DNA of 52,981 bases from a virus (lineage: Duplodnaviria; Caudoviricetes). The stretch lies in the IMG/VR virus record IMGVR_UViG_3300018080_000230, positions 1 through 52,981 of that record; one strand, given 5' to 3'. The notes under the pieces were generated by a model that was given only the letters and a program-made list of their open reading frames with translations, was not told the origin of the DNA and did no database searches. A program made the translations under genes and the position numbers. Position 1 is the stretch's first letter, and each line of letters starts with the position of its first letter. Below are positions 26,847 to 46,956 of this stretch, piece by piece.

Positions 26847-26854
26847 TTTCTCTT

Positions 26855-26902
26855 TTCCAAAAAAAGCCAGCTTTCATAGAATATATGGGAAGCTGGCTTT
26901 TT
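26855..26902. terminator. intrinsic terminator, potentially bidirectional
   Basis: aaaaaagccagctt...aagctggctttttt inverted repeat with A and T tracts on both sides. Confidence 0.8.
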
Positions 26903-26941
26903 TAAAAAAACGATGGTAAAACAATCTATTTCAAAATCTCT

Positions 26942-27487: not shown

Positions 27488-27513
27488 TGTTCCACCTCTC
27501 TTTTTATGATCGG

Positions 27514-27543
27514 AAAGAGGGGGGAGAAAAAATCTCCCCCCTC
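27514..27543 (-). terminator. hairpin/terminator after the major capsid gene
   Basis: GAGGGGGGAGA-TTTTT-TCTCCCCCCTC followed by a short T run. Confidence 0.7.
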
Positions 27544-27563
27544 ATGACTTGATCACGGGTTGA

Positions 27564-28940
27564 TTAGAGCTTGCCCTTGACGTTCTTGAAGACCACGAAC
27601 TTGTTGGGAGCGGTCAACTGCAAGGTTACATAAAGATTCTGCAACCACTGGACATACGCCCCCACCCTGGCAAGCGGAAGCTTGGTCAGGGGAGCAAGAC
27701 GCTTGACACAGATCGTATCAAGCAGCGTGTCCACGTCACAGACGAAAGTATTGCTCGTTCCCGGTATGTCTTCATTCTTGTCATCCACGTTCTGAGGCGA
27801 TGCTGAAAAGGCGACCGTCCTCATGTATTTCAGCACCGTGGAGGTCGGGGTCTGCAACCGGTAAATCTTGTACGCCTGGGGAGTCGCCCCCGAACCGTTC
27901 TTGGTCACGGCAATACGGATTCCTTCACCGGAAGCGACCGCAATACCGGATTCTGCGGACGGAGCGGATTCACCCTTATCCGTGATGGCGGTCACGGCAA
28001 AGGTATACGTCCCGACCGCTGCGCCGAACTGCTCATCGGCTGCTGCAATTGTGGACAGGGCAATGGTCGGGGCTAACGGGCCACCCGTTCCCTTCGCTGC
28101 CGTGGGTTTCGCCTGACCTTCTTTAATAAAGACATCGGGCCGGAAAGCAATGTCTCCGAAAGATGTCCGCACACCGGCGGTCGGCGTACCGATCATGATA
28201 CCCTGCGCCGGATTTACGGGCAGGATGAGACGCTGATCGGGCTCAATAGAGGCATCCAGGGAAGACTGAACACCGTGAGCATGGAAGGAATAGTTGGCTG
28301 AACCGTAATTATCGGCAATGATCTGCGCTGCATCCTGGAAGTTAAGCTGTGAAAGCTCGGCGTTTCTCATGTCGATAATGTGATCCGCACTGGCATTTGC
28401 CACCACCAGGGCCAGGAGTCCATCAAACTCCTTGGGGATGTTTGTGGAATTGCCGTTAAAAATGGTTTCTTCCAGTTTCCTGAGAAGAAAGCGTGTACCG
28501 GCAATGGTCTGGACATTGATCGGGCTCTGGATATTTTTCACCTGACCGGACACGTCTGAAACTTTGCGGAGAGTCCGCAAATATTTCACGACCGAATACT
28601 TACGGGTCAGGGTCGGGTCTGATTCTTCGGGATTCTCGATCTCGGAGACAAACGCACCCTCGTTCTCACCGTAGTCGCTCTCGACCGAATATTCTTCCAC
28701 CGTGGAATATGCGGGACGCTGCGGGATGACCTTTACGGCCTTGAGATGTTTTTCGGAAAAGGTCACGTTTTTCAACGTGCCGTCAAGAGACTGCATACGC
28801 AGTGCTGAACCGCCGGTAAAACCGGACGGATCAACTCCCTGACCCGTTTCCAACGCCTTGATAAGCTCCTGAATCTGTTCGGGAGTCGCCGTGGCGTTCT
28901 CAACGTTGTCAGTGTTGGCAAGTTTTTGAATGTCGTCCAT
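27564..28940 (-). CDS. major capsid protein precursor (SPO1/Twort/A511-like)
   Basis: ELIK|ALETGQG...GGSALRMQSLD, AYSTVEEY and EFDGL motifs; inserted FN3-like domain; C-terminal PNKFVVFKNV. Confidence 0.95.
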   Translation of the reverse strand: MDDIQKLANTDNVENATATPEQIQELIKALETGQGVDPSGFTGGSALRMQSLDGTLKNVTFSEKHLKAVKVIPQRPAYSTVEEYSVESDYGENEGAFVSEIENPEESDPTLTRKYSVVKYLRTLRKVSDVSGQVKNIQSPINVQTIAGTRFLLRKLEETIFNGNSTNIPKEFDGLLALVVANASADHIIDMRNAELSQLNFQDAAQIIADNYGSANYSFHAHGVQSSLDASIEPDQRLILPVNPAQGIMIGTPTAGVRTSFGDIAFRPDVFIKEGQAKPTAAKGTGGPLAPTIALSTIAAADEQFGAAVGTYTFAVTAITDKGESAPSAESGIAVASGEGIRIAVTKNGSGATPQAYKIYRLQTPTSTVLKYMRTVAFSASPQNVDDKNEDIPGTSNTFVCDVDTLLDTICVKRLAPLTKLPLARVGAYVQWLQNLYVTLQLTAPNKFVVFKNVKGKL

Positions 28941-28991: not shown

Positions 28992-29879
28992 TTACACAAG
29001 CTTGGCTTCTGTCAGCACTGCCTTGACACCGGGCGTTAGCTGGCCGGTAAGCTCGAAATTGGTCGCCTCCTGGAGACTGATCCGGCCATCGTTGTTTTCA
29101 ATGGCTTTATTCAGGGCATCGACCCTCTGGCCGTGGTTTGCCCCGCCACTGCTTTCATGACCGGCATTGTTCAGCCTTTCGGAATCCAGAAATGATTTCT
29201 CAAGCGGGGATGCATCGGTCGGCTGGCTGGATTTCCTGGGAAGGGGCTGACCGCCGATTTTCTCCACGGTCTCATGTACCGATTTCATAAGGCTTGCCTC
29301 GGCCTTTTTCACTTCGGTAAAAGATTTGTAGAAATCCCCCTGGCCTTTCTCGATGGCCGTAATGGATTTGCTGATCTTGGAAATCTGGCCGTTGATTTTG
29401 TCAATGGCCTTGTTCTGGTTCTGGATGGCCGTACACAGACCCTTGACAAGCTCACTGGATTCGTAGGCTTCCACGAAATCGGCATCCTGTTCAGTCAGCG
29501 ACTTGACAATATCGTTCTCCTCGGAGAGCGATTTTTCGGTATTGGCTCCGGTCTCACCGTCACCGGCTTCTCCTCCGGTCTCACCGTCACCGGTCTCACC
29601 GTCACCGGTCTCACCGTCACCGGTCTCACCGTCACCGGCTTCTCCTCCGGTCTCACCGTCACCGGCCTCTTTTCCGGCCTCGCCACCGGCTTCCCCGCCG
29701 GTTTCTTCGCCTTCGCCCTTGACCAGTTTTTCCATCGTACCCAGGACGGAATCAAGTGATTTCCGTAACGGGTTTTTGTCCTTGTCGTCCTCGACCTTTT
29801 CACCGGTCAGGGACTTGGCGATTTCGGAAAGCTCATTGAGGGATGCAAGAGCCTTCTTCCTCTGTTCCTCTGTAAGCAT
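28992..29879 (-). CDS. scaffold protein
   Basis: Acidic/coiled-coil, between protease and capsid genes, many xxKS/KG sites. Confidence 0.8.
   Translation of the reverse strand: MLTEEQRKKALASLNELSEIAKSLTGEKVEDDKDKNPLRKSLDSVLGTMEKLVKGEGEETGGEAGGEAGKEAGDGETGGEAGDGETGDGETGDGETGDGETGGEAGDGETGANTEKSLSEENDIVKSLTEQDADFVEAYESSELVKGLCTAIQNQNKAIDKINGQISKISKSITAIEKGQGDFYKSFTEVKKAEASLMKSVHETVEKIGGQPLPRKSSQPTDASPLEKSFLDSERLNNAGHESSGGANHGQRVDALNKAIENNDGRISLQEATNFELTGQLTPGVKAVLTEAKLV
29548..29710. repeat. in-frame tandem repeats (15-bp ccggtctcaccgtca x6 interspersed with 12-bp variants) encoding GDGET/GGEA
   Basis: Directly visible within the scaffold gene. Confidence 0.95.
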
Positions 29880-29891
29880 TGGAAAACTCCC

Positions 29892-30848
29892 TTACGTTAA
29901 AATAGTGTAAAGTTTATTTACTCTTTGTCTCTTTTTATCATTCGAGAGCATCTTAACAATTTCACTCGCAACCTTTTCGGATAAACCACGGCACTCTTTA
30001 AGATGCTTCTTAAGTTTTTTTAAGTCGCTGGTCGGTTTGTTTGTTTGATGAGAACAGATTTTACCCGATACATCATCAATGTAAGTTGAACCATCCAGCA
30101 GTTTCAGAAATTCAACGCTTGCTTTCGCAATCTCATTATTCGTGAAAGTGGTAACCTTGAGACCCTTATCAATAGATTGCTTTCTGAGCGTACCTGCCCC
30201 GGATGCTGGCATGATTGCCTGGCCGGTCTCCATTGCCTTTTCAACATCCAGGTAACAAGATGCATAATGAGGACACGACTCAGTACAGGCAATGGAAGGA
30301 TTGAATTGGCAAACACCGGCAAAAGATTTTACAATATCCACCCAGGTATTGCGATTGATCGGATGTTCCGTGATGGCAATGTTCTTGACCCACGCCTTAA
30401 CAATGCGATTGCCTTTGCGTTCCAGGGTCTTGCCCTCTACGCTTGCACCGATCCTGCGTTTTGAACCCACGGATTTAAGAACACGGAGATGCTTGATAAG
30501 CTGCTCTGCAACCGGCTTCTCATTGGACTTGTAAAGAAAACCCTTTACCAGAAGTCCGCAATAACCGGTCTTGGTATTTTTGACAAACTCATAATCGGTC
30601 GGCTCACCGATCAAATACTGAGAGCCCTTATTGTGATCGTAGTTGAAATACCCGCCTTTCATAAGATAATCCAGGATAAAACCTTCCGGCTCAACCACTT
30701 CTTCCTGGATATCCTCAACGTTGTCACCGGCCAAAAGCTTGATGAAATACTTGTTGTCATCCTCGCCACCGGATTTTTCCAGATCGGTCTCCATACCCAA
30801 AGGGATTGAGAAGTCCTGTCCTACCTTGTAGTGTTCCAGATTTTCCAT
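29892..30848 (-). CDS. prohead (maturation) protease
   Basis: D..EE, GYFNYDH, IGEP, GASVEG and NIAITEHPINRNT motifs (His/Ser protease of the HK97/herpes fold). Confidence 0.9.
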   Translation of the reverse strand: MENLEHYKVGQDFSIPLGMETDLEKSGGEDDNKYFIKLLAGDNVEDIQEEVVEPEGFILDYLMKGGYFNYDHNKGSQYLIGEPTDYEFVKNTKTGYCGLLVKGFLYKSNEKPVAEQLIKHLRVLKSVGSKRRIGASVEGKTLERKGNRIVKAWVKNIAITEHPINRNTWVDIVKSFAGVCQFNPSIACTESCPHYASCYLDVEKAMETGQAIMPASGAGTLRKQSIDKGLKVTTFTNNEIAKASVEFLKLLDGSTYIDDVSGKICSHQTNKPTSDLKKLKKHLKECRGLSEKVASEIVKMLSNDKKRQRVNKLYTILT

Positions 30849-30849
30849 A

Positions 30850-31000
30850 ATAAAAAAGCCAACCTCTATAACGTAAGGGGAATCCCTTGGTTATGTGAGG
30901 TTGGCTTTACCCTTAGTGGAGGCTTTCGCCGTAAACCTCGCCGGTTTCCCGGCTTTATACTGGACAGGGGAATCATGGGCTAAACCATGATCCCCCGTTT
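30850..31000 (-). promoter_or_regulatory. structured leader/attenuator upstream of the prohead protease
   Basis: Terminator-like stem 30855-30908 plus a T tract, abutting the ATG; two GAAA tetraloop hairpins; three AAAGCC copies; alternative pairing segment at 30931-30939. Confidence 0.7.
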
Positions 31001-31046
31001 ACGAATATTCTATTTATTTATTAAATAACTAATTTTTTCACAAAAA

Positions 31047-31271
31047 TCAAATTTTTTTAATCAAAATCAGCCCAAACCCGGAATCCTGGGGATTCGTAAT
31101 TGCACCAAGATGGTTCTCGGTTTTGCAATATTTACAGACCGCCATTACCTGATTATCCCGGATTCTGAGCATTCGGGATTTTATGAGTGGATCGCCGTTG
31201 TCTTTTGCCGTCGCTGTTAAGGATTTTTTGCATCCTTTACACCGGAGCTTTCTGACATCTGTTTTAATCAC
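31047..31271 (-). CDS. Zn-ribbon protein, Mu Com-like
   Basis: 74 aa, LRCKGCKKSL...AVCKYCKTEN. Confidence 0.7.
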   Translation of the reverse strand: MIKTDVRKLRCKGCKKSLTATAKDNGDPLIKSRMLRIRDNQVMAVCKYCKTENHLGAITNPQDSGFGLILIKKI

Positions 31272-33174
31272 CCAGGATTCCTTTTAGGGTTTTTACCAGG
31301 TCAAGCAGCCTAAAAGCGGATTTCGTAATATATTGGGCCAGGTGCTTATTCACATAGATTTTGTTCTGGTAATAGCCTTCTTTTTTCATTGGCTTTTTGG
31401 ACAAAGTAATCACGCCCTGGCGTTTAAACATCTTCACATTGGCCACTCTTTCCTCAAGCTCGTCATAATGTTCTGATGAACTGCTGCGGATATCGGGAGC
31501 CCACCATGAATCCTTAATTGAATTTTTATACTCGTTAGAAGTACGGACAGTGCGCTTGTTCAAGAAAGCATTGACTTTCTCGGCCTCGGCTTTATCCTTG
31601 CATCGGAAAACAATGGCGTATTCTGCGGACTTGCATAACCGGTATCTTTCTTTTTTTCCGGTATCGGGATTTTTCTTGATAACGGATTCTTTGCTGAACT
31701 CCACCGGATCGTCCTCACCCCAGGAATCAGGCCACTGTACTGCGGATGCTTTAACCTTAATATCGTAATCAGGAGTAAGCCCCGCACTTTTAAGCTCGGT
31801 CAAAAGCTGCTTTCCGTGTTCGCCATTAGCTGTATAATTGTGGTACATGAGATTAAATTTATCATTGGCCGTCATGTCATTGATATAATCCTTACCGGCC
31901 ACGTCATAGGAAAAAACATTGTACCCTGTTCTCTCACCCTGCTTTAATGAAATAAGGCTGTCACCTTCTTTCTCCGCTTCTTTCTCAACAAAATTTGAAT
32001 AAGTCGTGTTCTTAAACTTTTTTGCAGCCTTATCAAATTTTGAAAAGTATTCGGTTTCCTTTGGCTTGGCGACTCCGGGTTTTTTCTCAACCACCGGTTT
32101 TTCGCCCGGCCTTTGATGTCTGCGTTTTGTAGGGTCTTTTTTCGATGGCAATAAAGGCAAATCCTTCACACCCTTAACAAGCTCAAAGTTGTCATCAAAA
32201 GACTTGGCGATAGCGATCCCCCGATTCCTGGCCTCTTGCATCAACCTGGCCAGGCGATCCTTTTGGGTTTTCATAAGCTTTTTAGATCGCTTAATCTTCC
32301 CTGCATAAAATCCCAGGAGATACGCCCTGCTTGCGTTTTCTTTCGGCCTGGTTTTATACTTCGATTCAAAGATTCCCTGTTTCCAATCCTTCGTCATGTC
32401 GTTTTGGTTATGCGCTGACTCCTTCATCATTTTTTGCCAGCGTCTTATCCGTGGATTTTTTGTTGATGGAGCAAGATGCAATCTCTCCTTTATTTTTTGA
32501 ATCAGCCCTTTACTCAATATAGGCAGATACATTGGAATATCCCTACCAAGACCTTTGCGGATGATATGAAATCCATGAAGATTTGTGAACATTTTATACT
32601 TATTGCGCTCAAGCAAATCCATGAAGTCATCCATGCTCATTCCTTTGGCTGCGCCCATCCTGACCTTGTAAGCGTATACTTGTTTATCCGGCCAATCCTG
32701 GACAAAACTAAAAACACGCTTCTCGATCTCAGTCTTTGGTTTTTTAACCTTGGATAAGTATTTATCTACTAAAGGCTGTCTCGGTTCTTTTTCGCCCATA
32801 GACTGTGCGTAAGCTGCCCCAAGTTTTGAAACCTCGGTCGCAATCTTACGCTCTGCTGCTGCCTCTTTTTTCACGGTCTCTTTTTTGACCTGTTCTTTTT
32901 TCACTACCCGTTGTTTCGACCTTTTGGCAACAAATTTTTTCCTGGCCTTGATATCAGAACGGTAAACTTTTTTTCCTTCTTTAATCTCGAATTTTTTCTC
33001 TTTCTTCTGTTTTTCTTTTTTGGCCTTTTCACGTTCAGCTTTTCGCTTGGCCAAATACCGTTCCCTGGCCTCGATATCGGACTGATAAAGAACCTTGCCG
33101 GAAGGGAGAATTTTTACAACTCTCCCTTTCCGGCCTATGCCTCTCGGCATAGCCTTTATTAGAATTTTAGGCAT
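31264..33174 (-). CDS. Lys-rich putative internal head (cargo) protein
   Basis: N-terminal ILIK|A, internal K|G/S motifs and repeats; head cluster location. Confidence 0.65.
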   Translation of the reverse strand: MPKILIKAMPRGIGRKGRVVKILPSGKVLYQSDIEARERYLAKRKAEREKAKKEKQKKEKKFEIKEGKKVYRSDIKARKKFVAKRSKQRVVKKEQVKKETVKKEAAAERKIATEVSKLGAAYAQSMGEKEPRQPLVDKYLSKVKKPKTEIEKRVFSFVQDWPDKQVYAYKVRMGAAKGMSMDDFMDLLERNKYKMFTNLHGFHIIRKGLGRDIPMYLPILSKGLIQKIKERLHLAPSTKNPRIRRWQKMMKESAHNQNDMTKDWKQGIFESKYKTRPKENASRAYLLGFYAGKIKRSKKLMKTQKDRLARLMQEARNRGIAIAKSFDDNFELVKGVKDLPLLPSKKDPTKRRHQRPGEKPVVEKKPGVAKPKETEYFSKFDKAAKKFKNTTYSNFVEKEAEKEGDSLISLKQGERTGYNVFSYDVAGKDYINDMTANDKFNLMYHNYTANGEHGKQLLTELKSAGLTPDYDIKVKASAVQWPDSWGEDDPVEFSKESVIKKNPDTGKKERYRLCKSAEYAIVFRCKDKAEAEKVNAFLNKRTVRTSNEYKNSIKDSWWAPDIRSSSSEHYDELEERVANVKMFKRQGVITLSKKPMKKEGYYQNKIYVNKHLAQYITKSAFRLLDLVKTLKGILGD

Positions 33175-41132: not shown

Positions 41133-42289
41133 GCTGCCTTCCTTTTCTTAAAAGATTCGTACCACTGTTCCCACTTCTTTGAATCTTCTTGTTTCATTCG
41201 TGGATATCCTTTTTCATCTATCCACTGAGATTCTGGAAAGAACTTATTCCAGTTACACCGGCAATGAGGATGCAAGGGTATGGTAGGCATCCATATCATT
41301 GAATCCGGTCTGCGTACCCACTTGCCGGAAACCGGGTCTTTCGTGTAGTGCGCTGCGTACCGGCCATAATTTGTTTTCCCTACCCATATTTGGGTCTTCC
41401 AGTTTCCGGGGGCATCGGTCTTCTGATAAATCTTACCATGAATCATATCCAGGCAATGCTCACACGCATCCGGGGCAGAATCCCCGATCACCCATTCCCC
41501 TTGAGACAGGGCATCAATATACCCGTTTGAATCCCCGTAAGATACCTCGGTCAATGCCACCCTTCTCCAATCCCGGTTATCGCTCCCAAGCTCCTGGAAT
41601 AAATTCTGCCGAATTTTCCCGGTCGCATAATTGTTCCGGTATCCATCAAGAATGATTCTCTTAGTCCCTTCTTTGACCTTATCAGTTTGGGTCTGGATGA
41701 GAGAGCCGGTAAAATCTTTTGAGAAAATCATAGACCTGGCTATGTCCGGTTTTACCCGGTATTTTTTCATGGCTTCAATAACGGTCTTTGGGAGTTTCCT
41801 GGGATCGACAAGTTTGAAAGGCAGGGCTGCGGATTCCCCGGCCCGGATCAATCCCAAAAGATGAGACCGAACAGCCACCATTTCCGCTATTGCCTTATTT
41901 TTTTCCGGGGATGGAAAATACTTTTTCATAAGCCGGTCAATCAGATCGATATCATCCGACTCGTATTTAGGCATGGCTTTTACCAAAGTCTCACGCCGTT
42001 TTCCCAAATTGAATTTTTCCAGAACAGCATTCTGGAAACTTTTCATGGGCTCTGCTAAATAAAGGTAATAGATATCCTCAAGAATAGCCTGGGGTTTATA
42101 GGTGTGAGGATTCCAGATTTTGCTTGAATCTTTTTCTTTAACGGCCTTGATTAATTCACTGGCATCATCTGTAGAAAAAGATAGATAAGAAGTAAAAGCC
42201 TTAAATAAATGAGGGGATAAGGCAAGTCTTTCCGATGCGCTCAAATCATCGTCGAAATTAACCTTGTACGCTTCTGTTAAGCCTTTCAC
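41129..42289 (-). CDS. MuF/SPP1 gp7-like minor head protein
   Basis: RDWRRVALTE, ACEHC and PLHPHCRC motifs; directly after the portal. Confidence 0.85.
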   Translation of the reverse strand: MKGLTEAYKVNFDDDLSASERLALSPHLFKAFTSYLSFSTDDASELIKAVKEKDSSKIWNPHTYKPQAILEDIYYLYLAEPMKSFQNAVLEKFNLGKRRETLVKAMPKYESDDIDLIDRLMKKYFPSPEKNKAIAEMVAVRSHLLGLIRAGESAALPFKLVDPRKLPKTVIEAMKKYRVKPDIARSMIFSKDFTGSLIQTQTDKVKEGTKRIILDGYRNNYATGKIRQNLFQELGSDNRDWRRVALTEVSYGDSNGYIDALSQGEWVIGDSAPDACEHCLDMIHGKIYQKTDAPGNWKTQIWVGKTNYGRYAAHYTKDPVSGKWVRRPDSMIWMPTIPLHPHCRCNWNKFFPESQWIDEKGYPRMKQEDSKKWEQWYESFKKRKAA

Positions 42290-44120
42290 TTATACGCCTT
42301 ATGGTAAAGGAAATGGATTTACCCATTTCCGCACCCTCGGCTGGCTTAAAGCGTCCACCGGTCTTAGCTTCGGGACTTTCCTGTGGTGTAACTTGTTCTC
42401 CCTCGACTGTGCCTTGCTCCCCGGTCGGTTCCTCTCCTGGTGCGCCTTCTTCTCCTTGTGCGCCTTCTTCCATTGAGAACTCACCGCCGGTTTGGGCTTT
42501 AGCCATTTTTTCTGATTGCCAGGCTTGAAAAAGTATCGGGTTGGCCGGGGCATCTAACCATTCCTGGTTTTCTCCTTCCGGTATCTCCTCATCATTCTCC
42601 TTGATAAGTTGACGTACCGTTGACCCGGTTTCCAACCTTAATTTTCTGATCTCAAGTTTATCTTTTGTGCGGTCTTCTTTGACACCCACCCAATAAAATT
42701 CATATTTACCGCCATCGATCTCATTGAGGATATTGTTATTGAAAATATCCGCAATGAAATCCATAAGGGGCTCAAACCCCTTATCTTTCGATGACTTGAT
42801 TTTATCAAGAGGGCTTCCCTGGGATAGCGGAGCAGCACCCATCCGCAATGACTGAAATCCGATCTCCTCCACGTCTATGCGGAAAAGCGCACCGCATATC
42901 TGAGCCATGAAGGTCAAGAATTTATGTTGCTCCTCGGACGTTGCGTTCTTTCCCTTGAACTCCACAAAGGAAACGCCCTTGCCGTCCTTGGTTCTCATAA
43001 TGGGTATCTTGTGCTTGTAATTGGGATTTGACATGGAAAGATAAAACTGGTCTTTGAAATCTTGTAGCTCCTGGGTGTTCCAGTTTCCGATAATGGACAA
43101 GACACCGGCTGGAAGTTTGTTCTCGGAAAAGGTGCTGGTCGAAAAGCTCAATCCGTTTATCCATGCCGTGACCGCTCTGATCAAAAGCTCAAGCTCGGCC
43201 ACGCCATATCCGAAAAACCTGATATCAGTCCTGGGATTCTCAGAAATGTTCAGCATTTCATTTCTGAGAAAGTAAGCCGTATCCCTGTTATAGATGCGCT
43301 GGACATAAACGATGTCATCCGGGTTTACATTCTTGTCCTCTAACAAATCATGGTCATGCAAAAGGGCTGGCTGCATCTGCTGTGGATTTTTCCCCTGGAA
43401 ATAAAGCTCTTTCATGTACCTGGGAACAAGGGGATAAATAGTTGCTGCATCCACGGCATAGAAACTGTGAATATCTCCTTTGCGTGTGCGCTGCAATTCG
43501 ATATTCACTTTGTCACAGGTAAGCCGGTCACGGATAACCTTGGTCACGAATTTTTTAAGGGTGTCCCTTTTCTGAAATCCAACATAACCCTCGTCCCATC
43601 CGGTATGATACAGGAATTGTTCAATCTCGGCCATGCGTTTCTTATCCTGTTCAGTCGCCTTGGCGTTCCGATCCTTGAGCCTTATCCTGTATCCAAGCTC
43701 GTCCAATCCTTCATCGGTCGGCTTTGTGAATCGTACCGCCTGGGCGATCCTGGTAGATATGATAGCTGCGGGGATTTCGGTATCGGCCATTTGCCGAAGA
43801 ACGTCAAAGGTAAGAAAACGCTTTGTGCGGATTTGCCCGTAAGATGAATACTCGTACATATCATACGGGTCTACCACATAGGATTTGAGATCGTCAAGCT
43901 GAACAGTGTTTGAGCGTTTGCGGTCGTTCAGGTCTGAGACTTTTTCCTGAATGTCCAAAACTCTGTTTTGGATATCAAGAGCTTTCTCAATCTGATTCGG
44001 ATCGACCCATTGAATAATTCCACCGGCTTGAATAGGAATTGGGGTATTTGAGGATTTTTGAATATTGGATTTCTTTTTATTCGTAATTCCAAGAGCTTCC
44101 AATTCTTCCAACTGGATCAT
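42258..44120 (-). CDS. portal protein
   Basis: FYAVDAATI, NPRTDI..GYG..ELE, P.GVLSI and IDVEEIGF...SKDKGFEPL motifs. Confidence 0.93.
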   Translation of the reverse strand: MIQLEELEALGITNKKKSNIQKSSNTPIPIQAGGIIQWVDPNQIEKALDIQNRVLDIQEKVSDLNDRKRSNTVQLDDLKSYVVDPYDMYEYSSYGQIRTKRFLTFDVLRQMADTEIPAAIISTRIAQAVRFTKPTDEGLDELGYRIRLKDRNAKATEQDKKRMAEIEQFLYHTGWDEGYVGFQKRDTLKKFVTKVIRDRLTCDKVNIELQRTRKGDIHSFYAVDAATIYPLVPRYMKELYFQGKNPQQMQPALLHDHDLLEDKNVNPDDIVYVQRIYNRDTAYFLRNEMLNISENPRTDIRFFGYGVAELELLIRAVTAWINGLSFSTSTFSENKLPAGVLSIIGNWNTQELQDFKDQFYLSMSNPNYKHKIPIMRTKDGKGVSFVEFKGKNATSEEQHKFLTFMAQICGALFRIDVEEIGFQSLRMGAAPLSQGSPLDKIKSSKDKGFEPLMDFIADIFNNNILNEIDGGKYEFYWVGVKEDRTKDKLEIRKLRLETGSTVRQLIKENDEEIPEGENQEWLDAPANPILFQAWQSEKMAKAQTGGEFSMEEGAQGEEGAPGEEPTGEQGTVEGEQVTPQESPEAKTGGRFKPAEGAEMGKSISFTIRRISERLNRSVQG

Positions 44121-44210
44121 TCATAACTCCTGAAAAAAAATTGAACTATGCTGATTATAATACCCTGTTTCTTAAGAAATAATAATAAGTTACAAATTTG
44201 TCAAGTCTTA

Positions 44211-44290
44211 TAAAAAGAGCCCAGGTCAAGGAGTAACCTGGGCTCAATGCCTGGCATTACCGAAAGGTAACGGAGTGTGCCATGTTTACC
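44211..44290 (-). ncRNA. candidate ~80-nt small RNA between terminase and portal genes
   Basis: Lies between a canonical promoter and a terminator (stem 44217-44226/44236-44245, then TTTTT); internal TGGCA/TGCCA and TTACC/GGTAA stems. Confidence 0.5.
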
Positions 44291-44295
44291 CTTAT

Positions 44296-44324
44296 AATAT
44301 ACCATATCTTGTGATCCCGGTCAA
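44296..44324 (-). promoter_or_regulatory. sigma70-type promoter TTGACC-17bp-TATTAT with TGn extension
   Basis: Exact 17-bp spacing. Confidence 0.7.
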
Positions 44325-44345
44325 GAAATCTCTACATTTTGGGGT

Positions 44346-46340: not shown

Positions 46341-46610
46341 TTATCCCCGCCACTTCTTTTTAAATATCGGCTTGTTACCGTGACAAAACCATCTATTATC
46401 AAACGTTCCCAGGACATCATAGTATCCTTTGTCCGTAGGACAGATAATAACTTTGTTTGGATAATAAATGTCACGCTCAAGCACGTGCCATAACCCGAAT
46501 ATGGCGGTCAATCTGCCCGTACCTTCTTCGATAATGGAATAGGTAAGATCGATAATAGGGCTGGCCGGTTCAAAATTAAGAATAACTTGTATTTTAAATC
46601 CTTGCTTCAT
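46341..46610 (-). CDS. hypothetical protein (possibly leaderless)
   Basis: Abuts terL; no RBS; ATG lies 2 nt after a promoter-like motif. Confidence 0.5.
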   Translation of the reverse strand: MKQGFKIQVILNFEPASPIIDLTYSIIEEGTGRLTAIFGLWHVLERDIYYPNKVIICPTDKGYYDVLGTFDNRWFCHGNKPIFKKKWRG

Positions 46611-46612
46611 AT

Positions 46613-46625
46613 CTATAATATAACA
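46613..46625 (-). promoter_or_regulatory. late-promoter-like motif TGTTATATTATAG
   Basis: Resembles late promoter cores I recall for A511 (TGCTAGATTATAG) and Kayviruses (TGTTATATTA); sits at the start of the morphogenesis block. Confidence 0.55.
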
Positions 46626-46661
46626 AAAAAAGAGCCGATGGGAGAGATGCCACCGGCTCTT
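46625..46661 (-). terminator. intrinsic terminator ending the accessory gene block
   Basis: AAGAGCCGGTGG...CCATCGGCTCTT followed by a T tract. Confidence 0.85.
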
Positions 46662-46746
46662 ACTTAACCACGGAGGGGAGCGGAATCGGCCAAGATCGAC
46701 CGCCCCCTGGCCAGAAAAGTTAAAAAGCTATTTCTAATATACATTT

Positions 46747-46956
46747 TTATTTCGGGGATTCCACTCTAATACTTTTCCTGATAATCTCTATTACCTTATT
46801 GTAATCATCAAGGGTTTGCACCTTCCAGTATTTTATACAATTCGGGGAATTGAAATAAATCTCCGCTCCTATTGCGTCCACCACCCTGGTCTGTTTGTAG
46901 TGAATAATTCCCCGCCGGTTCACCCAATAGTATCCGCTTCCATTAAACATAGTCAA
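46747..46956 (-). CDS. hypothetical protein
   Basis: Small co-oriented ORF. Confidence 0.6.
   Translation of the reverse strand: MTMFNGSGYYWVNRRGIIHYKQTRVVDAIGAEIYFNSPNCIKYWKVQTLDDYNKVIEIIRKSIRVESPK

Follow-up and report, generated by a model that had tools for sequence, protein, structure and literature searches.

The window analysed here is the whole of a linear IMG/VR virus record of 52,981 bp (IMGVR_UViG_3300018080_000230; CheckV completeness 33%). On its minus strand, the gap of 198 nt between a 74-amino-acid (aa) zinc-ribbon open reading frame (ORF) and the gene for a prohead protease encodes an RNA that is very probably a real two-state attenuator. Two helices, an intrinsic terminator and an upstream antiterminator, share bases and exclude each other, and both are under selection, as is expected of an attenuator. 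We propose that the zinc-ribbon protein operates this transcription attenuator and in this way times the expression of the head genes, a proposal for which we consider the case evenly balanced.

The minus-strand order at this place is a 675-aa gene, a 636-aa gene, the zinc-ribbon ORF, the gap and the protease, whose ATG is at 30846-30848 (Table 1). A sequence-only reading of this DNA had described a 12-bp stem with a T tract ending a few nucleotides before the protease ATG. This description holds: AAAGCCAACCTC pairs with GAGGTTGGCTTT, the T run follows, and the stem is 6 nt away from the ATG. With the inner stems ATAAC/GTTAT and AAGGG/CCCTT a hairpin of 54 nt results, and the whole is predicted to be an intrinsic terminator, i.e., a GC-rich stem-loop directly followed by a U tract. 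No AGGAG-like Shine-Dalgarno (SD) word was found at the usual distance from the protease start, while in our reading of 30-nt upstream stretches such a word stands about 5-10 nt before the start in most of the other 48 genes. The only SD-like word before the protease is GAGG (30863-30866), 14 nt from the ATG. It lies inside the stem and is thus buried in the window, as had been claimed; this burial is specific to the window's subclade, and in distant relatives the weak SD is free of the terminator.

Upstream of the terminator, GAGGTTTAC mimics the terminator 3' arm, which had been noticed before. The pairing that had been proposed for it, with GTAAA..AACCTC of the 5' arm, stood only in part: GAGGUU:AACCUC and GGC:GCC (with UAC bulged) are retained among the relatives described below, whereas UUUAC:GUAAA is restricted to the window, GUAAA being absent at the corresponding place in the loci L003, L005 and L006. 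The conserved antiterminator consists of 9 bp formed by GAGGUU, a 3-nt bulge (UAC, UAA or AAC) and GGC on one side and GCC-AACCUC on the other. Its 5' strand is a copy of the terminator 3' arm, and GCC (30903-30905) and AACCTC (30897-30902) are common to both helices.

The protease has few close relatives. A metagenome scan returned 23 loci, including three distinct close ones: L003 (81% protease identity), L004/L006 (68-80%) and L005 (48%); L004 and L006 share one leader and were counted as one distinct locus. All of them keep the zinc-ribbon gene, a TTGA box at its stop codon and variable hairpins, and a long hairpin with T6-T9 stands directly before ATGGAA in L003, L005 and L006. We aligned the four distinct leaders (window, L003, L005 and L006) and counted the pairs cell by cell. 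In the antiterminator, 36 of 36 cells were paired and three of the nine pairs had changed on both sides: GAGGUU:AACCUC in the window and L003 is replaced by GAGGUC:GACCUC in L006 and by AAGAUU:AAUCUU in L005. These changes arose in two separate lineages, and no pair was broken. Only 6 of 500 column shuffles scored as well, and sliding the partner strand by 1-3 columns left 14-47% of the cells paired. The terminator lower stem had 42 of 44 cells paired, with two compensatory pairs; the two unpaired cells correspond to a bulged U in L006 that the alignment shifted by one column.

The predicted folds switch in the same way in all leaders. When the RNA was cut before the 3' arm, the minimum-energy fold held all six GAGGUU:AACCUC pairs in four of four leaders; when the 3' arm and the U tract were added, none of these pairs remained and the terminator was formed, again in four of four. 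The two-state switch that the sequence-only reading had put forward is therefore borne out by compensatory changes in both helices as well as by folding. On its own, the antiterminator domain has a folding energy of -12.7 to -19.5 kcal/mol, compared with about -28 kcal/mol for the terminator, and the open state therefore needs either kinetics or a bound factor. The 211-nt leader as a whole folds at -80.2 kcal/mol, compared with -47.5 ± 4.4 kcal/mol in 200 shuffles (z -7.4), i.e., it has structure beyond chance.

The other parts of the leader are less constant. The sequence of the 5' hairpin P1 is not conserved, although a hairpin occurs at the same place in all four close relatives, and hairpin P2 is limited to the window and L003. 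The two GAAA-capped hairpins (P2 and a second one further downstream) and the three AAAGCC copies that had been reported earlier are all present at their places (Table 1). Each record has a single copy of the leader motif. Its exact form is found once in the window; in the records of five relatives, the copy in the protease leader was recovered in four, and no terminator follows the four additional matches with one mismatch in these five records. The idea that a genome might carry further copies of the element was discarded for this reason. Two other candidates were also rejected, namely leader-peptide attenuation, as the small ORFs differ in frame between the window and L003 and are absent in L005 and L006, and a split SD, in which the hairpin would bring AAGGG near the AUG, as L005 and L006 have no AAGG ahead of the hairpin. 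The Rfam search that had been recommended yielded no family: there was no match at gathering score in the whole window, and the matches in 30700-31400 were at chance level, with bit scores far below the gathering scores. No leader variants were found in the DNA contigs of four public runs, where none of the pieces listed spanned the whole stretch. The phage is present in sediment and seawater samples, and none of the public runs listed as containing the stretch was an RNA run.

The linkage of gene and leader, on which the sequence-only reading had built, extends far beyond the close relatives. The protease is immediately preceded by a zinc-ribbon gene in the window, L003, L005 and L006 and also in L008/L010, L009 and L013. 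The latter have 36-39% protease identity, a small CxC/CxxC...CxxC gene upstream and a terminator before the protease; the terminator hairpin is predicted in L008, L009 and L013 as well as in all four close relatives. Neither the protease nor the close set of zinc-ribbon sequences, used as single protein or alignment, retrieved any relatives from viral_contigs or genome_contigs. When five distant zinc-ribbon representatives were used as queries against viral_contigs, 15 loci were obtained, and in all 15 a protease homolog came next, about 81-143 nt further on (assigned by blastp at 1e-61 to 1e-84 for 14 loci, and for L059 from its sequence). Counting distinct sequences, the module is present in 20 distinct loci, in the order zinc-ribbon gene, sigma-70-like promoter, short copy of the 3' arm, intrinsic terminator and prohead protease.

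A TTGACA-17/18-TAnnnT element, matching 9-10 of 12 consensus positions, was found in 12 of 16 distant loci and in L005 and L006; it often overlaps the zinc-ribbon stop codon. All 16 distant loci have the motif YUCC-A(N)4-5-GGGAG. Their terminator 5' arm opens with GGGAG and the 3' arm consists of CUCC(C) and a U run, so that the same logic recurs with different letters: an upstream copy of the 3' arm can pair with the 5' arm. In L069, all three strands have changed together (UUCC / GGGAA / UUUCC). This distant mini-hairpin has 4-5 pairs and is nearly invariant (56 of 60 cells paired, with L069 as the one compensatory case), and the evidence in this group is the conservation of the stem and of the loop, AUAAAG, where A7, A9 and A11 are invariant in 16 of 16 sequences. 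The mini-hairpins have -3.9 to -6.3 kcal/mol (seven computed) versus -17 to -26 kcal/mol for the terminators (six computed), a difference that argues for a holding factor. The distance from the end of the terminator to the ATG is 10-27 nt in the distant loci, where a weak SD stands clear of the hairpin. Among 17 loci, the gene upstream of the zinc-ribbon gene belongs to seven unrelated families, the block itself remaining unbroken, and the zinc-ribbon start mostly overlaps the end of that gene. In L008 (85-507) and L069 (2033-2476), the upstream gene encodes a Cys-rich protein of 140-147 aa (CxxCxxCC-type) that is unrelated to the 636-aa gene of the window. The records of the two most complete relatives are 125-139 kb long.

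Not all loci with such a protease have the module. In L011, L012, L014-L025 and most of L030-L054, whose proteins resemble an Exiguobacterium-phage prohead protease, the protease is immediately preceded by a large portal-like gene, or no zinc-ribbon ORF stands there. Among L011-L025 and most of L030-L054, many loci show a T-tailed hairpin and then a conserved GATATT box, with a protease SD of the GGGGGTGA type following about 15-25 nt further on; we take this box to resemble the -10 element of SPO1 late promoters. A DNA pattern for the terminator arms matched only four copies of an unrelated coding stretch. The protein pattern GYFNYDH gave 25 stretches in viral_contigs, mostly in a prohead-protease ORF of about 250 aa with a large upstream gene that is not a zinc-ribbon gene; the matches in L032, L040, L044 and L046 and in an unrelated ORF in L034 look like chance and were discarded.

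The zinc-ribbon ORF adjoining the leader encodes the CxxC/CxxC protein that had been described before. A hidden Markov model search with seven zinc-ribbon sequences gave 128 cluster representatives at E <= 0.001, almost all of 56-129 aa. The four cysteines are invariant in 75 of 75 aligned family members, and positions 20, 29, 31, 33 and 47 are conserved as basic (Lys/Arg). The isoelectric point (pI) of the window protein is 9.9; the family median is 9.2, and 68 of the 75 members are above 8. The AlphaFold2 model is a five-strand zinc ribbon with a mean predicted local distance difference test (pLDDT) score of 75.9, in which residues 59-74 are of low confidence (pLDDT < 50 for residues 59-63 and 65-74). 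No Pfam or PHROG family was assigned to the protein, the best match being PyrI_C at 1.8e-4, below the cut-off. Foldseek returned nothing at E <= 0.001, and the best VIA-align Z was 2.9, with generic zinc ribbons only. A sequence search of the PDB gave only weak matches to papillomavirus E6 and RNA polymerase zinc ribbons (E >= 0.009), and the Protein Atlas only unnamed or CpXC-type clusters. Neither Zn_ribbon_Com (PF10122) nor Ogr_Delta nor a Q-family Pfam matched any of the 75 members at E <= 0.01; for the window protein, the Com and Q families gave no match at E <= 0.1 and Ogr_Delta none either.

The protein had been called Com-like, after the Mu protein Com, and this label is only loosely justified. 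In hhalign, alignment A5 matched Mu Com (sequence taken from the Mu record) with a probability of 59.6% (E 8.9e-5) over 32 columns that include both knuckles, with a 14-residue gap in Com, whereas the control comparison with P2 Ogr gave 1.1% over 7 columns. What does not fit the label is the absence of Pfam matches among the 75 members, although Mu Com itself matches PF10122 at 2.7e-9 (36.8 bits), and the lack of conservation of the Com RNA motif CC(N)2-3GAG. This suggests a possible remote relation and not membership.

We envisage the following mechanism. The 198-nt gap would be the leader of a head-morphogenesis operon (protease, scaffold and capsid). Transcripts from the promoter-like box or from upstream would stop at the terminator by default, and this would leave a short RNA of about 150 nt. 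The zinc-ribbon gene would be the last gene of the preceding operon, its GTG start overlapping the 3' end of the 636-aa gene by 8 nt. After the basic zinc-ribbon protein has accumulated, it would bind and hold the antiterminator hairpin, and RNA polymerase would then continue into protease, scaffold and capsid. In the subclade of the window, this refolding may additionally free a U-rich, SD-less ribosome landing site. The net effect would be a one-target timer for the capsid assembly genes. Since burial of GAGG is confined to this subclade and the SD lies outside the hairpin in the distant loci, the conserved target would be transcription termination and not unmasking of the Com type. We also suggest, with somewhat less than even confidence, that the zinc-ribbon proteins (60-90 aa) form a new class of antiterminators, each dedicated to binding one RNA and perhaps distantly related to Mu Com; each would clamp a mini-hairpin having bases in common with one intrinsic terminator. 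If so, an uncultured phage lineage would possess single-target timers for its capsid-assembly genes, and protein and RNA site would have diversified together, with CUCC-AUAAAG-GGAG in most members and GAGGUU-bulge-GGC in the window's subclade.

Several points weigh against this interpretation. The covariation comes from just four sequences, and related sequences can beat shuffles without any structure, as the tool itself warns. The distant mini-hairpin is weak, with only 4-5 pairs, and since it is nearly invariant, its covariation is indistinguishable from chance (121 of 500 shuffles were as good). The promoter-like box of the window is weak too (7 of 12 consensus positions), and its TTGATT overlaps the zinc-ribbon stop codon TGA (31047-31049), which could account for part of the TTGA conservation. 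Promoter use, termination and read-through are all predicted from sequence. The zinc-ribbon protein is probably the effector, but what connects it to the RNA is the linkage of its gene with the leader; synteny by itself could keep the gene there, and the true effector could be a host factor or a polymerase modified by the phage. Moreover, the modelled fold of the protein is a generic zinc ribbon, and the protein has no Pfam family.

In its architecture, the element appears to be a protein-dependent attenuator combined with a Com-like gene arrangement and, possibly, remote homology to Com. BglG/LicT with its RAT site, the ANTAR dual hexaloops, HutP and PyrR are protein-dependent terminator/antiterminator attenuators, and as in these systems a weak antiterminator shares bases of the terminator 5' arm and would need a protein. 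The differences are that the candidate effector here is a 74-aa zinc ribbon and not a CAT/PRD, ANTAR, HutP or PyrR fold, that the leader has no Rfam family, and that phage late genes are concerned, with one target per genome. Mu Com is a 62-aa protein with a CCCC module and a disordered tail, which binds a short hexaloop hairpin next to the translation-inhibition hairpin; its RNA motif is CC(N)2-3GAG (PMC6483171). Both proteins are small, basic CCCC zinc proteins with an N-terminal module and a disordered C-terminal segment, encoded directly upstream of a single target; in both, a short hairpin lies beside or overlaps the inhibitory hairpin, and the loop has six residues in Mu and in the distant group. 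Unlike in Com, 31 residues separate the knuckles here. The motif CC(N)2-3GAG occurs only in the window (CCGGCGAG, 30937-30944); L003, L005 and L006 lack it at the corresponding position of the alignment, and the distant loop is AUAAAG. The inhibitory hairpin is an intrinsic terminator and not a start-codon trap, a promoter separates regulator and target, and the targets are head genes, whereas the Com target is a DNA-modification gene. The lambda Q system likewise has a regulator gene, a promoter, a nearby terminator and structural genes, and default early termination is expected there to yield a short RNA, 6S or StxS (PMC7547250, 10.1101/651190). The zinc-ribbon protein has no sequence relation to the Q families, and a competing RNA helix is conserved here, whereas Q works through DNA and polymerase. 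It also differs from the P2 Ogr and P4 Delta late activators, to judge from the hhalign and Pfam results above. Among the papers on antitermination by Q, Xp10 p7, P23-45 gp39, AlpA, LoaP, pLS20 and BaGTA that our literature searches returned, no title or abstract links a zinc-ribbon gene with a terminator switch ahead of the head genes of a phage.

The same leader could instead be a leaky terminator or insulator that depends on no factor and stops transcripts of the earlier, upstream operon as well as those of the local promoter, with read-through that is fixed or due to a terminator-resistant late polymerase. The copy of the 3' arm would then tune efficiency co-transcriptionally, and the protein would act elsewhere (virion, assembly or DNA binding). 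In keeping with this, the hairpin lies between two gene blocks, other terminators in the window stand at operon ends, a T-tailed hairpin between portal and protease is also seen in relatives that lack the zinc-ribbon gene, the antiterminator is the kinetically first fold without any factor, and the tie of the protein to the RNA is one of linkage. We nevertheless regard this explanation as unlikely: the distant mini-hairpin would be too weak unaided against the terminator, its letters (A7, A9 and A11) are kept despite this weakness, which suggests recognition by a factor, and the zinc-ribbon gene stays with the leader while its upstream neighbour varies among the seven families. A different possibility is that the protein acts in the manner of lambda Q, on DNA or on RNA polymerase, at the promoter overlapping the stop codon of its gene, and serves either as an activator or as a factor conferring terminator resistance, with the short RNA as a by-product like lambda 6S RNA or StxS. 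The order of regulator, constitutive-looking promoter, terminator and late structural genes is indeed that of lambda Q-PR'-tR' (PMC7547250, 10.1101/651190, PMC9388147). A conserved sigma-70-type promoter directly follows the gene, and the terminator is kept in all 20 loci, while the long RNA antiterminator is present in one subclade only. The compensatory changes in the 3'-arm copy, in the close leaders and in L069, would however be needless for a factor that rides on polymerase. With 74 aa, the protein is far smaller than lambda Q (about 200 aa), it has no Q-family match, and the small zinc-finger late activator P2 Ogr was matched with just 1.1% probability; this makes a Q-like or promoter-level action rather improbable.

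Purely translational control of the Com type, with the hairpin blocking the ribosome at the protease start and the protein opening it, would fit the window's own subclade, where the stem ends 6 nt before an AUG without SD and contains the sole GAGG. It would also agree with the hhalign match to Com and with the binding of this small CCCC zinc finger to a short hexaloop hairpin beside an inhibitory hairpin (PMC6483171). In the 16 distant loci, however, the hairpins end 10-27 nt before the ATG and cover neither the start nor the weak SD, and start occlusion is therefore not the conserved feature. The hairpin is a canonical intrinsic terminator (GC-rich stem, U6-U9) in all four close relatives, and a promoter stands between regulator gene and target, whereas the com and mom genes overlap. 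We thus judge translational control on its own to be quite improbable. Finally, the promoter-like and terminator elements bracket a strongly structured RNA, as would a stand-alone gene for a trans-acting small RNA (about 75-160 nt) that lies before the protease by accident, and another unit of promoter, hairpins and terminator exists at 44121-44345. That unit is followed by a separate promoter and SD. Before the protease, the 6 nt between terminator and ATG leave no space for a second promoter, and the head genes must therefore be read through the terminator. Besides, conservation is limited to the terminator and the 3'-arm copy and does not extend to the RNA body, so we see hardly any chance for this explanation.

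The timing of capsid production in large uncultured phages is mostly unexplained, and the module offers a compact, testable unit of one small protein, an RNA element of about 45 nt and one terminator, kept in 20 distinct loci. Were the protein the effector, a zinc-ribbon RNA binder would join the short list of antiterminator protein types, the Com idea would reach beyond translation to the termination of transcription, and synthetic biology would gain a small, orthogonal switch made of a protein and an RNA. Should the protein have no part in it, the leader is still a cis-regulatory RNA family that is unannotated and has no Rfam entry.

Table 1 Features of the leader and of the surrounding genes in the window
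Feature	Position	Strand	Sequence or description	Basis
Portal gene	42258-44120	minus		phrog_15361, 5e-33
Zinc-ribbon gene	31047-31271	minus	74 aa, basic, C11/C14/C46/C49	ORF list
Promoter-like element	31022-31050	minus	TTGATT (31045-31050), 17-nt spacer, TATTTA (31022-31027)	sequence reading
5' hairpin P1	30967-30996	minus	GGGGGATCATGG / CCATGATTCCCC, loop TTTAGC	folds
Hairpin P2	30940-30953	minus	GCCGG-GAAA-CCGGC, abuts antiterminator strand	folds
Second GAAA-capped hairpin	30921-30930	minus	GGC-GAAA-GCC	sequence
AAAGCC copies	30951-30956, 30921-30926, 30903-30908	minus	AAAGCC	sequence
Antiterminator 5' strand	30928-30939	minus	GAGGTT 30934-30939, bulge TAC 30931-30933, GGC 30928-30930	covariation
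Mimic of terminator 3' arm	30931-30939	minus	GAGGTTTAC	sequence
Terminator 5' arm	30897-30908	minus	AAAGCCAACCTC	sequence
Terminator 3' arm	30855-30866	minus	GAGGTTGGCTTT	sequence
Intrinsic-terminator hairpin (predicted)	30855-30908	minus	54 nt, -28.1 kcal/mol folded alone	folds
T tract and start	30849-30857	minus	TTTTTT 30852-30857, then ATT, then protease ATG	sequence
Prohead protease gene	29892-30848	minus		phrog_1028, 2.7e-41
Scaffold gene	28992-29879	minus	own SD	phrog_15087, 1.9e-7
Major capsid protein gene	27564-28940	minus	own SD	phrog_752, 3.2e-89

Nearly all large ORFs of the window are on the minus strand, and several family-less genes lie on this strand between the portal gene and the 675-aa gene. 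The capsid gene is followed by a terminator in the intergenic region 27488-27563, so that, with the terminator of the leader upstream, the head genes have a terminator on either side. Together with 26847-26941, after the next gene, this region makes two further intrinsic terminators on the minus strand. Neither a tRNA nor a tmRNA was found in the window, and the phage collection contained no DNA match to it.

Three other regions of the minus strand contain conspicuous RNA elements. Upstream of the portal gene (44121-44345), a promoter-like TTGACC-17-TATATT with TG is followed by about 75 nt with hairpins, a strong terminator (44217-44245), a second promoter-like box, an AGGAG SD and the ATG at 44120; the arrangement resembles a small stand-alone RNA gene. 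At 46610-46750, a GC-rich hairpin precedes a strong terminator (46630-46661; 12 bp, T7) that lies 19 nt before an SD-less ATG at 46610, which opens an ORF of about 90 codons; the protease-leader motif is not shared. The third region, 1140-1500, is GC-rich over about 360 nt, has no obvious ORF and lies downstream of a strong promoter-like box, TTGACA...TATATT (about 1500-1522). Its RNA has a folding energy of -149.6 kcal/mol (z -6.6), and the predicted structure includes a terminal hairpin of 20 bp and several hairpins capped by GNRA or UUCG loops. With Rfam matches at chance level only, it is a candidate structured non-coding RNA.

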